Source: Nitrosopumilales archaeon (GTDB taxonomy: Archaea; Thermoproteota; Nitrososphaeria; Nitrososphaerales; Nitrososphaeraceae). Taken from it: a stretch of 10,065 nt of DNA. The notes under the pieces are model-generated. The model searched no databases. It was given only the letters and a program-made list of their open reading frames with translations, and was not told the origin of the DNA. The translations under genes were made by a program, and so were the position numbers. Position 1 is the stretch's first letter; each line of letters begins with the position of its first letter. The stretch is from NCBI GenBank assembly GCA_044507735.1, contig JBIQJB010000045.1:1-10065 (forward strand). Reading direction: 5' to 3'. Shown here one piece after another: positions 2,877 to 7,945 of this stretch.

Positions 2877-3431
2877 CTACACCAAGTCGCTAGTGTCGCC
2901 AAACTGCTTCATCCTATTTATCCGCCGCCTGTCCAAGAACGTAATGATTGCGCCGGCTATTGCTACAGCCATGCCTACAGCGAGCAGCGATGTGAAACCG
3001 AGAGCGCCCATAGCTGTGGAGAGGTTGCTTCTGCTCAGTACGGTCTCATAATCATCTAACAACACTGAAACTTCAAGTGGCATGTCTGTCGGATTTGTAA
3101 GCGCAAGCGTGTAAACACCGGGTTCCCGTATCTCAAAAGTTTCAATCACGATGGGAGGATCGATGCTCTTTTCAATCAATATATCGCCGGAAGGATTTCT
3201 TATCTCGATTGCAACCTGCCCCTCAAATCCCGGGAATGCGACAACATAAGCAGCAGCGCTTGCGTTAACATTCTTTTGTATTTCAATAGAAGCGCCGGGC
3301 TCTACACTAAGCGTTTCTTCTTGCTGTACGCTGTCTACGAACTGCAATCCATAGTATGCAAGCATCGAAAAGCTTATGGCCACCATTGCCCCGCCTGCGA
3401 TCATCAATATCAGGCCCCTCTTTAGATGCAA
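2877..3431 (-). CDS. Membrane protein with N- and C-terminal TM helices flanking a beta-rich extracellular domain
   Basis: Two hydrophobic segments around a beta-strand-pattern domain (EPGVYTLALTN). TTG at 3431 preferred over 3515 because a minus-strand TTATATAA lies at ~3457-3464. Ends 23 bp before the ABC ATPase start. Confidence 0.78.
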   Translation of the reverse strand: MHLKRGLILMIAGGAMVAISFSMLAYYGLQFVDSVQQEETLSVEPGASIEIQKNVNASAAAYVVAFPGFEGQVAIEIRNPSGDILIEKSIDPPIVIETFEIREPGVYTLALTNPTDMPLEVSVLLDDYETVLSRSNLSTAMGALGFTSLLAVGMAVAIAGAIITFLDRRRINRMKQFGDTSDLV

Positions 3432-3856
3432 TCTGAAAATGCGTAAAGCCCAGTAATTATATAATCTTATCAAAGGTATTTCCGCTTTCACCAACAAGTC
3501 GTCGGTGTACAACACGTATTTGCAGATATGAAATTGATGGATAGGCGAGACAGAGACAAGGGATGACTATTCGTGCAGGAGAGCAGTGGAGAACTATTAA
3601 TTATCTTTCGATTTCGTTGCATATCAAGATACAGTCAGACCGGGAGTAATACTATATGCACCAATCTTGTAGATTGTAGACAGCTCCTCCTTGTTCTTTG
3701 GGTTCGGGTCCCGGTTCAAACCCCTGCATCACTTTTCCGTCTGGCAAAATCTACGCTGATTGGGGTAATCAATAGCTTCCTTGTTCGACGAGCTGGCAGA
3801 CCATGAAAATATGAAGCAGTTTGCATAACTCCTGAAATAATCTCCAAATATAAATT

Positions 3857-3920: not shown

Positions 3921-4542
3921 ATGACTCTCTCAAAGAAGAGAATTATGTATGCAACGGTATTGTCGGCAATCGCGGCATCCCTATTTTCGGTAGTGCTGCT
4001 GGTTGGCAATACTCAAAAAAGAGGCCGTTGAGAGTAGTTCGCTAGAGTCAGTAGCCGGTCCCGTCAGCATCATGGATAGGTTCGAAAAGGGCTATGCAAC
4101 AGACTTGATAGTGGGCAAGATAGAAACCGACAACATATCGGTAAAGCGCGGACAGACGTTGGAGATCCCCGTAACATTCGAACATCTAAGCAACACAAGC
4201 ACCAGCAAGGACGTAACGCTGACCAATTTCCATAACGCGTTCAGAAACTTCGCCCCGTCCGCAAATGAAGGGCTCGACGACGCTGAGTTCATGAAGCTAA
4301 TTCGCGAAAACGAATCTGTCAGAGGGGAAATAAAGATGGAAGAAGTCACAGTCTCGCCCTCTACGGTGACGATTTCACCAAAGGCAACAACTACTGTAAT
4401 CATGACAGTGACGGTGCCACAGGACCTCCCTGTAGAGATGACTGGCAAGTCCATAACTATCGGCCTAGGATTCGACATCTCGCCCGAATCGACCGAGATC
4501 CGGGGCGTTGGTCCTAGCGTGACTTTGGTGGTGACTGAGTAG
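3921..4542 (+). pseudogene. Frameshifted gene for an exported/membrane-anchored Ig-like protein (about 206 aa if A6 at 4015-4020 is read as A5)
   Basis: ATG 3921 reads MTLSKKRIMYATVLSAIAASLFSVVLLVGNTQKRGR* (basic N-region plus hydrophobic core) and stops at 4029-4031. Removing one A joins it to the 4003..4542 frame (..QKEAVESS..), which has Ig-like beta-strand patterns. Confidence 0.75.
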
Positions 4543-4544
4543 AA

Positions 4545-5495
4545 TTGACGAAAAAACTAGGCATAGTTGGCACATCTATCGCCGTCGCGATGATGGCGAT
4601 GTTGACCGCGCCCATGACAATCCAGTTCGCATTCGCGGACCAGCCGTACGTTGCAGGATACGGCATCGACGGAACCACTGTCAGCGACATAGGAGAAGCT
4701 TACATTCGACAGTACTTCACCGATGAAGACGGCAATAACAGCATAGATGAAGACCTGCTTTCAGTCCTTTCAATCGAAGGGACTACAGGAGGAGTGAGCG
4801 GAGTGTCAGGGTTCAACTATCAGGGCGTGCTTCAGTGGGACATTGACGGTTATATTTACACCAACGACCAAGTGTGGGGTCCGAACCAGGCAAAGACCTC
4901 CTACGGTGAGCAAGACAGCTTAATCGCGTTGCAAATGGTCCCAAAGAGCCAGTTCTCCAGAGCTACTACCGACATCTACTATAACGCTGGCCAGACTCAG
5001 GTGTACTTCGACCACGTGATCTACAAAACAGACGGAACCTCGTTCGGCAGCGCGAGCGTTCACTTGAAGAAGAGCTGGGAGCCGACAACGCGCTTCCTAT
5101 ACGGAAAGTGCACGGGCAGCGCCTGCTACAGCGGCAACCCTAGCAGCAACACCTTCAAGTTCTTCCAGTTTGGCATAGAAACTGAAGTGACAGAGCCGAC
5201 GAACTTCAAGGTCAAGCAGGACACAATCAGATACAAGCTTCAGGGCTCATCATCTTGGACAAACGTGAGCAGCAAGGACGCCTACCTGACCTACGGCGAC
5301 TCAGGCAACCTCGTGGGATGGTGGTTCGACAATACTAACGCACGACGTCTGGTTACGTTGGGAGGGTTCTCATTCTACGACGCCTATGCCAAGGCCCAGT
5401 TGACGGATGGCTCTTACAGTGCAGGAATTGTGGAATGGGACTATACAAACTGCGGCGGCCAGAGATGCCACACCCTGCCACAACAGCTGTGGTAG
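4545..5495 (+). CDS. Secreted beta-rich protein of unknown function
   Basis: 316-aa ORF with Sec signal ending AFA|D, rich in Tyr/Gly/Thr/Ser, two Cys pairs (CTGSAC, CGGQRC), many C-ending codons. Starts 2 bp after the upstream stop. Confidence 0.85.
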   Translation: MTKKLGIVGTSIAVAMMAMLTAPMTIQFAFADQPYVAGYGIDGTTVSDIGEAYIRQYFTDEDGNNSIDEDLLSVLSIEGTTGGVSGVSGFNYQGVLQWDIDGYIYTNDQVWGPNQAKTSYGEQDSLIALQMVPKSQFSRATTDIYYNAGQTQVYFDHVIYKTDGTSFGSASVHLKKSWEPTTRFLYGKCTGSACYSGNPSSNTFKFFQFGIETEVTEPTNFKVKQDTIRYKLQGSSSWTNVSSKDAYLTYGDSGNLVGWWFDNTNARRLVTLGGFSFYDAYAKAQLTDGSYSAGIVEWDYTNCGGQRCHTLPQQLW

Positions 5496-5515
5496 GGGCA
5501 CTTCCCCACTTTTTT
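5495..5515 (+). terminator. Hairpin plus oligo-T terminator GGGG-CACTT-CCCC-AC-TTTTTT
   Basis: 4-bp GC stem and T6 tract directly at the stop codon of 4545..5495. Confidence 0.65.
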
Positions 5516-5546
5516 GAAACAGACTATAGAACGGGACTGAGTAACC

Positions 5547-6191
5547 TTGAAATCGCACGGAAAGCTCTTGATAACAAAGACATTGTTCGACCGAAGTGTC
5601 GTGCTTACACTTGCATTACTCCTGCCTCTGACCTTTGGTGTTGGGAAGGTTATCGCTCAGGAATCCGATGCGGGTGCATCATCTTCTCTCCTTAAGTTTG
5701 AAAATGAGGAGCCATCACGCATTACAATAACGGCCGGCGAGACGATCACGTTGAAAGGCTCAGTTCAGAGTCTAATTGATGTGGAGATGACTGTGGAGTT
5801 GTCTCTCGTATCAGACGGGAGCGAATCCGGTGGCTGGGTAGTTGAGGAAATGGACCCCCCTTCGGATTTCCTTCTGCCGGCAACTGAAGGGGTTCCTTAT
5901 GAGTTCAAAGTCCGGTTTCTCGAACCGGGAAGCGTAAAGCTGCAGCCGAGTGCACGCATACTAGAAATCCCGAATAGGACAACCCCGATCGACTCAAATT
6001 CGCCAGACTGTCCAAGCTGTTTGGGAAGAGGATCAAACATTGTTGTGACCGAAGGAAACCCCCCAAATGATGAAATGCCTTTGATTCTGGCGGTCGGTGT
6101 TGCATTGCCTATAGCCGCTGGCGCGGCGATTTCTGGATGGTACTTTCTTCGAAAATCTAGGGCCGCAAGGCGACGTAATTCGCAGCTCTGA
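5547..6191 (+). CDS. Divergent AmoB-like (archaeal ammonia monooxygenase subunit B fold) membrane-anchored protein without copper-binding His residues
   Basis: Colinear with recalled archaeal AmoB motifs: AGETITLKGSVQSL ~ TGETLTLSGTLVSL; WVVEEMDPP ~ WEILARDPP; VPY; LEPG; LGRGSNIVV ~ LGPGQTVVV. Signal peptide and C-terminal TM plus basic tail. Start may be a few codons later. Confidence 0.75.
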   Translation: MKSHGKLLITKTLFDRSVVLTLALLLPLTFGVGKVIAQESDAGASSSLLKFENEEPSRITITAGETITLKGSVQSLIDVEMTVELSLVSDGSESGGWVVEEMDPPSDFLLPATEGVPYEFKVRFLEPGSVKLQPSARILEIPNRTTPIDSNSPDCPSCLGRGSNIVVTEGNPPNDEMPLILAVGVALPIAAGAAISGWYFLRKSRAARRRNSQL

Positions 6192-6383
6192 TTCGATTAG
6201 ATCATTTAGGCTTCCGGCAGGTCTCTCACAACTTCCTGAATCAAGCGGGTACACTTACGTGCTCGAAGAATGGATAAGGACTTTAGCCGCACCGATGGCT
6301 TCTCTCTTAAAAAGAATGCTCGCACCTATGTGAGACCTGAAACCTCTAGTCTATACATGACAGAGCCGTGTCGATCACAATAA

Positions 6384-7727
6384 TCATATAGAGATAGAAG
6401 GGCCAAGGTTCAAAGTATCAAATCTGACGTGCAAAGATTTGGCCACCTGTGCTTTAATGTGCTCAGGTATTCCACCATAACATTTGTTCAAAACTTCAGT
6501 GTTTTCCCAACCTCCCAAGCTTGCAACGTAGGCAAGAGACCAGTTGGTAGCCGCTAGGTAATATTGGGCCATTGTATGCCTAAATAGATGCAAGGGATGT
6601 CCGTTAAAGTATAATCTATCGCCTAGCGCGTAGATCCTAGTCTTTTCATTGAGCCAGCTTGATTTGTCAAGTTCTGAGAATATTTTCTTGAACCTGGTTG
6701 CCATCTTTGACATGAAGTAAGAAGCTTGCAGAGCGTTTGCCTTGTCGCTCTTGGCATCTTCAAAGAACAGGAATCTCCTTTCTTTTGGCAGCCTGTCGCG
6801 AGCAGTCTCGATAACTACCCTACACTCTTCTGTAGGATACTTGACCCACCACTTGCCTTCCCTTGTAAGATACCAATCACCACGCTTAACTTTCGGTTCA
6901 AATTGCTCGCTTCTGAACAGTGGTGAGAATGTGATCCTATCCCACCTCATTGAAGCCATTGCAAAAGCCCTTGCTCCGGTGTGGAGATCAATGTTCATAA
7001 AGCTCCAAGCTTCCCAGTCACCCTCAATCTCAAGGCGTTTGTTGATCCTGTCTATCTGCTCCGGCGTAAGCATGATGTCTTTGTACTCCCCAAGTCTTTC
7101 AGGCGTAGTTGACAGCCCGTACCTTCTGCCTTCGCCATGAGCGAAATTGATATTGTGCGCCGCCAAGAAGCTGCGGTAAGCGTTAATCGTGTTTGTCTTC
7201 TGCATTTGCGGATAAGCAGTATTGAACCAAGCAAGGAAATTCTGCCAATATTCAATCGCTATTTCCTTGCGCTTAGTACTATCTACTGGTACGCCGAAGC
7301 TTATGAGAATCTCAGGCATGATCTTTAGCTGGTCAGATATCACGTGAACTACATTTACCAAATAACGAATCCTGCGTGATGGTATTCCACCAGATTTGAG
7401 AAATGTTATCCATTTCTGTATCGATGGCAGTTGGTTGAACGGTTCACTTTCCAGCTGCCTACATTCATTTGCAAGCTGTTTTTGCAGCGAGATTACGATA
7501 TTGCCGTTGGCATCGCGCTTGATTCCCCACTTTTCCTCTTTTTCCATCTCTGAGAGATAACGTGAGACGGTACTGTGGTCCTTGCCAATGTCCACGCCGA
7601 TTTCTCTCGTTGTATAGTTGCCATTCTGGATACTGATTGCGATTGCTTCTTTGATCTTCTCCCTGTCCTTGACCTTCAACCCCTTGACCCTTAAGCGGCT
7701 CTTTCTTCTTACAAGTGCCTGAGCCAC
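6384..7727 (-). CDS. Tyrosine recombinase/integrase with N-terminal helix-turn-helix (about 447 aa)
   Basis: Catalytic motifs HTGAR (R), HLFRH (H-x-x-R), LGGW (W in place of second His), KCYG (Y). HTH YTTREIGVDIGKDHSTVSRYL. GTG 7727 preceded by SD-like GAGGTAGGGG; the extension to 7931 does not look protein-like. Confidence 0.9.
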   Translation of the reverse strand: MAQALVRRKSRLRVKGLKVKDREKIKEAIAISIQNGNYTTREIGVDIGKDHSTVSRYLSEMEKEEKWGIKRDANGNIVISLQKQLANECRQLESEPFNQLPSIQKWITFLKSGGIPSRRIRYLVNVVHVISDQLKIMPEILISFGVPVDSTKRKEIAIEYWQNFLAWFNTAYPQMQKTNTINAYRSFLAAHNINFAHGEGRRYGLSTTPERLGEYKDIMLTPEQIDRINKRLEIEGDWEAWSFMNIDLHTGARAFAMASMRWDRITFSPLFRSEQFEPKVKRGDWYLTREGKWWVKYPTEECRVVIETARDRLPKERRFLFFEDAKSDKANALQASYFMSKMATRFKKIFSELDKSSWLNEKTRIYALGDRLYFNGHPLHLFRHTMAQYYLAATNWSLAYVASLGGWENTEVLNKCYGGIPEHIKAQVAKSLHVRFDTLNLGPSISI

Positions 7728-7914
7728 TAGCCCCCTACCTCTTTTCTTGTTGCAGCCACACGTAGAACTGTCAGAAGCAGTGACGTGGTAGGGGGATAGA
7801 TATACCAGATAACAAATAATAAAGTCGGAAAAATTGTTAGTGTTACTTGTTGACCTCTCGGGTAGAAGTTTAGTGTCTGCACATTTTCGGGGCCAGCTTG
7901 ATTCTTCGCGCCTG

Positions 7915-7945
7915 TGCAACGATTTATGCAACGCTTTTGTTGCAT
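7915..7945. repeat. Three TGCAAC boxes at 12-bp spacing: direct TGCAACG (7915-7921, 7927-7933) and inverted ATGCAAC-GCTTTT-GTTGCAT (7926-7945)
   Basis: Read directly from the sequence; lies in the divergent intergenic region upstream of the integrase. Confidence 0.55.

Follow-up and report, generated by a model that had tools for sequence, protein, structure and literature searches.

Introduction

Archaeal nitrification begins with ammonia monooxygenase (AMO). AmoB belongs to the three subunits that make up the core of this enzyme, and what its copper site does is still under debate. According to the accessible part of the cryo-electron microscopy study of AMO from N. maritimus, CuB is held by three conserved histidines (bioRxiv 10.64898/2026.08.31.748207). 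Only a few AmoB derivatives have been described. The best known is AmoB2 of 'Ca. Nitrosopumilus piranensis' D3C, which, in the sections of the genome paper available to us, is reported to keep the three histidines, to be 48% identical to AmoB1 and to have arisen within the Nitrosopumilales, and the gene of which is distant from the amo cluster, in a variable region that also encodes secreted and membrane proteins (Bayer et al. 2016, PMC4839502). For the related methane monooxygenases, the consulted excerpt of PMC13058606 describes a verrucomicrobial PmoB without CuB ligands, assigns the active site now to the C subunit and states that no homologue of PmoD is known from ammonia-oxidizing archaea (AOA). 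Here we describe a gene at 5547–6191 of the window, by which we mean the whole 10,065-nt stretch of DNA that was analysed and which comprises all of contig C46 of the genome under study (G000; 2.33 Mb, 55 contigs, 97% complete). Its product is an AmoB paralogue in which all three copper ligands are replaced and a CxxC loop has been inserted. We regard it as established that this protein descends from AmoB and has lost the copper site, and for its function we propose a model below. A full-text literature search (subscription-only literature aside) gave no description of a family of histidine-less AmoB paralogues, and neither did the accessible parts of PMC10030591, PMC4084955 and PMC7603488.

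Like canonical archaeal AmoB, the paralogue has a signal peptide, a single cupredoxin-like beta-sandwich and one C-terminal transmembrane (TM) helix. Unlike it, the paralogue has no CuB histidines, carries a 14-residue insertion with the CxxC motif, has a variable helix with a basic tail at its C-terminus and does not reach the family PF04744; moreover, AmoB is universal in AOA whereas the paralogue is rare and dispensable. AmoB2, as far as the consulted sections describe it, is the nearest known case, as it is also a divergent second amoB in a variable region away from the amo cluster, and two AmoB2-like proteins of our collection (P0026 and L081) have an aromatic-basic tail instead of TRPWQVI, a motif that the paralogue lacks as well. 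It differs from AmoB2 in being histidine-less and only 29% identical to AmoB, in its CxxC insertion and in its position outside the whole canonical clade (PMC4839502, in part). The verrucomicrobial PmoB is likewise a homologue of the B subunit without a histidine brace, but in the excerpt at hand it is the sole, operon-encoded B subunit of a working enzyme, whereas the paralogue is an extra, unlinked and patchily distributed copy beside an intact amoB (PMC13058606). With bacterial PmoD/AmoD, compared here by their description in the same excerpt, it shares the architecture only, namely an extracytoplasmic cupredoxin-type domain, a C-terminal TM helix and conserved cysteines; PmoD is operon-linked and binds copper through His, Met and Cys, while the mature chain of the paralogue is predicted to have no His. 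Finally, the soluble beta-barrel of the Nmar_1504 type from Nitrosopumilus is also an AmoB-like cupredoxin domain put to another use outside AMO, at least in the part of the preprint that we consulted (bioRxiv 10.64898/2026.08.31.748207), but the paralogue derives from the N-terminal, copper-bearing domain of AmoB, is membrane-anchored and is unlinked.

Results and Discussion

The open reading frame (ORF) at 5547–6191 is intact, comprises 214 codons and starts with TTG. The gene call in the database (P0001) begins instead at codon 8, but we favour the long start because the resulting N-terminus M-K-S-H resembles M-H-S-H and M-H-K-H of the homologues P0002 and P0004 (pattern M-(K/H)-(S/K)-H). 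The gene and its product show the following features:

5547–6191, + strand: gene of the AmoB-derived paralogue (214 aa), with start codon TTG and stop codon TGA (6189–6191)
5547–5657, + strand: predicted signal peptide, residues 1–37, with basic n-region, hydrophobic core at about 17–34 and VIA before the cut; aligns with canonical AmoB signal peptides
5658–5660, + strand: Gln38 (CAG) at the first CuB ligand position, which is the N-terminal His of mature AmoB (alignment)
5691–6050, + strand: cupredoxin-like beta-sandwich ectodomain, residues 49–168 (strands of the AlphaFold2 (AF2) model, predicted local distance difference test score (pLDDT) mostly >90; best fold match 4o65)
5937–5945, + strand: K131-L-Q133 replacing the HxH of the CuB site (BLASTP, alignment, hhalign)
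5979–6020, + strand: 14-residue family-specific insertion TTPIDSNSPDCPSC, ending in C155-P-S-C158 (6009–6020); a gap in canonical AmoB
6072–6140, + strand: C-terminal TM helix, residues ~176–198 (Kyte-Doolittle windows, AF2 helix 176–212)
6141–6188, + strand: predicted basic cytoplasmic tail in place of the canonical A-T-x-P-W-Q-V-I end, with 6 K/R among the last 15 residues

Two hydrophobic windows (residues ~17–38 and ~176–198) frame the chain, and the sequence pattern suggests cleavage of the signal peptide at VIA|QE after Ala37. The sole His of the protein, residue 4, precedes both the hydrophobic core of the signal peptide and the cleavage site, and C155 and C158 are the only cysteines. 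In the AF2 model, built from a 19-row alignment (mean pLDDT 82.8), nine strands fall within residues 49–168 and a helix spans 176–212. The insertion is modelled with a pLDDT of 92 and a short helical turn at 156–158; it sits in the hairpin between the long strand 128–141, which starts at the former HxH, and the last strand 163–168, which leads into the TM helix. This order of strands in the model would place the CxxC loop at the membrane-distal tip, one strand length from the old copper site. An earlier note on this DNA, made from the sequence alone, had proposed a signal peptide, a beta-sandwich and a C-terminal TM helix, with no His left in the mature chain; hydrophobic windows and model agree with this, the cleavage site being read from the sequence pattern, and the positions that it gave for Q38, K131-L-Q133 and the CPSC motif are exact. 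Scans against Pfam and NCBIfam assigned the paralogue to no family, a word-based search for protein homologues gave nothing beyond the protein itself, and a search of the ESM Atlas returned unnamed clusters only.

As for the homology to AmoB, a search of the genome with the paralogue matched its single PF04744 gene, located on contig C17, at E 3.0e-13. This canonical AmoB (L003:1459-2049) contains AHGVQAQLQSRFVRIDNE and LEPGTYHVH, just as the earlier note had stated for the histidine-site motifs of archaeal AmoB, and it aligns with the paralogue by BLASTP at E 1e-18 (51/178 identical, 29%) with one 14-residue gap opposite TTPIDSNSPDCPSC. With hhalign, a profile built from 13 paralogues matched one of 11 canonical AmoBs, which represent four AOA families, over 122 columns (probability 99.05, E 2.1e-18) and again showed the insertion. 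Core residues common to the paralogue and canonical AmoB are G64, G71, W97, Y118 and G128. The three CuB histidines (H42, H137 and H139 of the G000 AmoB) are invariant in 11/11 canonical AmoBs; aligned with them in the paralogue are Q38, K131 and Q133, so that all three ligands are replaced. The C-terminal A-T-x-P-W-Q-V-I is equally invariant (11/11; canonical tail TRPWQVI) and is absent from the paralogue, the C-terminus of which consists of a hydrophobic helix, poorly conserved across the family, and then the basic tail.

Structure comparison points in the same direction. A phmmer search of the paralogue against all PDB sequences gave 4o65, the crystal structure of the AmoB cupredoxin domain of Nitrosocaldus yellowstonii, as the sole match (E 0.013). 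Foldseek with the model also ranked 4o65 top (E 2.4e-7), with PmoB and bacterial AmoB chains at ranks 25–42 amid many immunoglobulin (Ig)-like domains. With VIA-align over 48,161 chains, 4o65_A came first (Z 13.2, root-mean-square deviation 1.8 Å, 105 residues, 27% identity), PmoB 3rgb_A second (Z 12.0) and macroglobulin-type or generic Ig domains next (Z <= 11.5). The fold match to 4o65 is by itself little above generic, and the homology is carried by the sequence and profile statistics, by which the paralogue is a true AmoB homologue by descent. PF04744 is not reached, as the paralogue gave no match at E <= 0.1 and six other family members none at E <= 0.01, while the canonical AmoB of G000 matches it at E 9.9e-12. 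The AmoB ancestry, the loss of every copper histidine and the exchange of the AmoB tail for a generic TM helix with a basic anchor had all been put forward in the earlier note, together with the profile and structure comparisons as a way to check them, and the results above agree on each count; the insertion ending in CPSC is there as well, with a length of 14 residues instead of the roughly 12 that had been estimated. The model does not show the thioredoxin fold of CxxC oxidoreductases: it is an all-beta sandwich, and the top listed fold matches are all beta-sandwich domains.

In order to place the paralogue within its family, we searched 1.84 billion representative proteins with HMMER and obtained 29 proteins at E <= 0.001, 12 of them at <= 1e-10 and four at <= 1e-30. 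All 29 were scanned by script and 25 were inspected by eye, which gave the following groups:

Protein itself: P0001 (1)
Histidine-less, loop CxxC present: P0002, P0004–P0010, P0012, P0013, P0017, P0021 (12)
CxC in place of CxxC: P0003 (1)
Histidine-less domain without Cys pair: P0011, P0014–P0016, P0023, P0024 (6)
N-terminal fragments ending before the loop: P0019, P0020 (2)
HxH kept: P0018, P0022, P0026 and P0025, a fusion of 842 aa (4)
Long multi-domain proteins, not sorted residue by residue: P0027–P0029 (3)

P0023 has kept the N-terminal His, and P0025 combines DUF6519 with an HxH-bearing PF04744 domain. At least 13 full-length homologues at 30–48% identity keep the fold core and 11 of these have the CxxC; altogether the loop CxxC is found in 12 homologues besides the paralogue. 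The histidine-less family, which is diverse and occurs in metagenomes, retains the loop Cys pair in most of its members. Both cysteines are invariant in a 13-row alignment of CxxC members, in the context I-D-x-x-S-P-x-C-x-x-C with conserved D149, S152 and P153 flanking C155 and C158. As the rows were chosen for the motif, this alignment shows conserved spacing and context and not the frequency of the motif. In many family members the predicted mature chain begins with Gln, and a further Gln stands in place of the second His of HxH. AmoB-derived domains also occur in fusions: L076 (G056:C100) is a histidine-less protein of 302 aa with a second domain and a PEF-like C-terminus, and P0014, P0016 and P0029 carry N-terminal histidine-less AmoB-derived domains on longer proteins, P0029 with a BNR_2 match.

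We reconstructed a phylogenetic tree from 42 rows and 187 columns (IQ-TREE, LG+C20; P0013, P0019–P0021, P0024 and P0027–P0029 were left out). A branch of length 1.36 with support 100/98 has all 18 histidine-less rows on one side and, on the other, all canonical AmoBs of the four AOA families, the AmoB2-like pair P0026 and L081 and the domain of P0025. The AmoB2-like pair is nested within the canonical clade of family f13 (95/99). In this tree, which is unrooted and has long histidine-less branches, the family lies on the far side of the branch and is thus no recent offshoot of Nitrososphaera amoB. P0011 and P0014–P0016, which lack the cysteines, are nested inside the CxxC group, suggesting that the pair was lost there. 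Conservation of the CxxC and a phylogeny with canonical amoB were both checks named in the earlier note; the former gave the conserved spacing and context, the latter a paralogue outside the clade of all sampled canonical AmoBs in the unrooted tree.

The gene is rare. Using its family-specific C-terminal half (89 aa) as query against 238 genomes of family f1, six genomes gave a match at E <= 0.001. Five of these, G000, G031, G181, G003 and G467, belong to the 72 Nitrososphaera genomes (G000 counted), and the 166 genomes of the 17 other genera gave one doubtful match in G526 (E 9.3e-4, one stop), which was set aside because its translation shows no family motif. With the paralogue profile at E <= 1e-24, G000, G031, G003 and G181 were found in the same 238 genomes, and only G000 in a phylum-wide sample of 401 genomes (0/400 others). 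In an order sample of 401 genomes the profile matched 229, but via canonical amoB, and of the 150 matches listed only those of G000 and G181 extended past profile position 143. Canonical amoB itself was matched in 101/111 genomes of the family in the order sample; its tallies include G009, G025, G287 and G301, which are flagged as unpublished and on which no statement about the paralogue rests. A further match in G000 on contig C47 (E 0.018) was taken as chance, since it is a 149-aa ORF with an acidic tail and no signal peptide. Retrieval of related loci gave one 1,257-bp metagenome contig without context, plus the G031 contig.

The copies found are in very different states. In G000 the frame is open along the whole profile. 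Compared with the window, the G031 copy has gained 3 nt in frame and 1 nt after 6162 and has lost 1 nt at 6048, and its frame stops after 179 residues, before the TM helix. The gene is split over two frames by one frameshift in G181, a complete single-contig genome, and over three frames by two frameshifts in G003, and G467 keeps an 82-residue remnant. The stretch 4003–6400 was also seen in 20 DNA runs (X1–X20) from 13 studies, the habitat labels of which differ widely; X6, X9 and X11 yielded contigs identical to the window, and X14 yielded nothing. Such a wide occurrence could reflect either a cosmopolitan strain or carry-over between data sets.

Regarding mobility, the earlier note had placed the gene in an accessory cluster, and the patchy distribution, the differing flanks and a segment that is more similar than the amoB locus all agree with a place in variable DNA. 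Between G000 and G031 identity is 95–100% over 4526–6450, which covers the upstream 316-aa gene and the paralogue, and 66–82% over the downstream recombinase-like gene. At the canonical amoB locus it is 85–89%. The divergence of the two genomes therefore lies much further back than the exchange or retention of this cargo. Past the recombinase gene the flanks differ, with an alpha/beta hydrolase in G000 vs a Cas3-like helicase and Csc2 in G031. Scans of viral contigs with the paralogue, the recombinase, P0002, P0004 and P0008 gave no relatives, PHROGs gave nothing for the paralogue or its three neighbours, and a search of the window for direct repeats of att type bounding the segment found none.

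From these data we think, with moderate confidence, that the paralogue is a non-catalytic, membrane-tethered, AmoB-derived ectodomain of the flexible genome with the CxxC loop as its working part. It would be a type-I membrane protein with a Sec signal peptide cut after Ala37, followed by the AmoB-type cupredoxin-like beta-sandwich on the outside, which a short linker joins to one TM helix with a basic tail in the cytoplasm. As the ligand positions are occupied by Q38, K131 and Q133, the CuB histidine brace cannot be built, and as both the CuB ligands and the invariant tail are missing we read the protein as neither catalytic nor a regular AMO subunit. The insertion I-D-x-x-S-P-x-C-x-x-C would lie in the membrane-distal hairpin that joins the last two strands, well away from where copper was once bound, and on the oxidising outer face C155 and C158 are most likely linked by a local disulfide, which would make an exposed recognition loop more rigid. 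The protein might then act as an anchored binding or surface module, with the loop doing the work, and its gene would be dispensable, move between lineages and be lost frequently.

Several points weigh against this proposal. Judging by analogy with the verrucomicrobial PmoB, loss of the CuB ligands alone would not bar a protein from a place in a monooxygenase. The present results fit a disulfide and a metal-binding dithiol alike, it is the strand order of the model that sets the loop apart from the old copper site, and the family includes the subgroup P0011 and P0014–P0016 without cysteines. Furthermore, of the five copies in species genomes only that of G000 is intact while four are broken, and there is no RNA run among the runs listed as carrying the stretch. 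Given the broken copies, a role of little or no importance has to be reckoned with.

The cysteines could instead handle metal, so that the tethered ectodomain would bind Cu(I) or another soft metal through the distal loop and serve as an extracellular copper carrier or buffer for AMO. Its ancestor was a copper protein, the two cysteines and their D149, S152 and P153 flanks are conserved throughout the 13-row alignment, and a cupredoxin fold with one TM helix resembles the architecture of PmoD as outlined in the consulted excerpt (PMC13058606). We nevertheless consider this unlikely: with no His and three non-conserved Met the mature chain can offer no more than a two-thiolate site, the disulfide form of a CxxC is favoured on the outside of an aerobe, P0003 has a CxC and a nested subgroup has no Cys pair at all, and a gene that is rare and mostly broken in genomes fits poorly with a role for a core energy enzyme.

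Another explanation is that the gene is in decay across Nitrososphaera and that the G000 copy, though still unbroken, is a remnant with no present function. The disruption of 4/5 genomic copies and the missing RNA run speak for it, and so does a contig of run X6 that shares the 1-nt insertion of G031 after 6162, which shows that this allele exists in nature and is not an artefact of one assembly. The pattern of substitutions speaks against it. Over codons 1–167, G000 and G031 differ at nine sites. Six of the changes are synonymous; the three non-synonymous ones are S3L and H4Y, both in the n-region, and E80D, the sole one in the mature domain. This gives a dN/dS of 0.17 and a binomial p of 0.0099 for >=6/9 synonymous, with small counts and transition bias ignored. 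In addition, the G000 frame is open across the whole profile, and the 13 or more full-length homologues keep the fold core, 11 of them with the CxxC. The earlier note had named a lack of conserved homologues or a dN/dS near 1 as signs of a decaying copy; homologues are conserved and the ratio is low, while the four broken copies point the other way. Taken together, we find a mere relic improbable for G000.

It could also be possible that the paralogue is an alternative B subunit that replaces AmoB in some AMO protomers, giving a CuB-less complex with altered activity or regulation. Functional variation by multiple AmoC copies has been proposed, and subunit variants are common in this genome: full-length amoA loci lie at C17:115287-115835 and C9:29699-30247 (E 3.4e-120 and 1.9e-115), although two amoA copies are unusual, and five amoC-like loci lie on C4, C22, C36, C54 and C17, beside one canonical amoB. 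The paralogue is a true AmoB homologue with the same domain and TM layout, CuB ligands are described as dispensable in some copper-containing membrane monooxygenases (PMC13058606, in the part consulted), and a role of its own has been proposed for the His-retaining AmoB2 (PMC4839502, likewise in part). The main point against it is that the invariant TM helix and tail (11/11) have been swapped for a non-conserved anchor. The identity to AmoB is only 29%, the family lies beyond a branch of length 1.36 (100/98) from the canonical clade, and the gene occurs in 5/72 genomes of the genus with four copies broken and is unlinked to amo genes, so that we hold such a subunit to be quite improbable. The earlier note had also stated that no amoA, amoC or amoX is nearby. 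This stands for amoA and amoC, which are off the 10-kb contig (amoX was not searched for), but it says little because canonical amoB itself lies 6–8 kb from amoC and amoA.

The boldest idea, which we regard as a long shot, is that the histidine-less CxxC family might be the archaeal counterpart of PmoD/AmoD, holding Cu(I) on a distal dithiol loop, servicing or tuning AMO and spreading by mobile DNA.

Returning to the surroundings of the gene, its closest neighbours in the window are:

4003–4542, + strand: Fn3-like gene, first of a co-oriented trio, 179 aa (PF06280, E 3.4e-6)
4545–5495, + strand: co-oriented upstream gene, 316 aa, secreted-looking, no family; inside the segment 96–100% identical with G031
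6384–7931, − strand: tyrosine-recombinase-like gene, 515 aa (PF00589 E 2.1e-4, below cut-off, and PHROG integrase E 2e-4, both weak)

The earlier note had described an integrase beside the paralogue. A recombinase-like gene is indeed present, but it is a multi-copy element and not the single-copy integrase of an island, with eight matches in G000, ten in G181, five each in G003 and G467 and 16 in G031; the long matches are 77–89% identical and often contain stops. Contig breaks and rearrangements could be due to such an element. In G003 and G181 neither the recombinase-like gene nor the 316-aa gene adjoins the paralogue, and as these neighbours differ the paralogue has no conserved partner gene; the 316-aa gene was accordingly rejected as a conserved operon partner. 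In G181 a 212-aa Hcp-like gene (L087 9915-10553; PF05638, E 8.5e-41) adjoins the broken paralogue, with large proteins of no family around it, and in G031 the shared segment abuts the genes for the Cas3-like helicase and Csc2 (L086 3669-7439).

Elsewhere in the window, the gene at 2877–3515 (− strand) encodes a 212-aa protein with an N-terminal TM helix, a probable beta-rich ectodomain and a C-terminal TM helix with basic tail that belongs to no family. This protein and the 179-aa one were considered as AmoB-like and rejected, the latter being unrelated by hhalign. Upstream of the 212-aa gene, a 58-nt stretch (3606–3663) recurs with 86% identity upstream of the G031 recombinase (L086 ~3597-3654) and could be a shared promoter or the end of an element. 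At the contig edge, identical 30-nt direct repeats at 1–30 and 68–97 (67-nt period) look like the end of a CRISPR array. Rfam and ARAGORN scans of the window found no RNA gene.

Conclusion

In summary, the paralogue and its homologues lengthen the short list of AmoB derivatives, so far AmoB2 and the domain of the Nmar_1504 type. As the gene is rare and often decayed, its ecological weight is likely limited. Nevertheless it shows genes derived from AMO to be on the move within the flexible genome of soil AOA, as amoC is in marine viruses. If the family were indeed a counterpart of PmoD, copper handling for nitrification would be a transferable accessory trait among soil Nitrososphaera. In any case, a family that keeps the AmoB fold without the histidine brace and with a new Cys loop is a natural experiment on what this fold can do without CuB.

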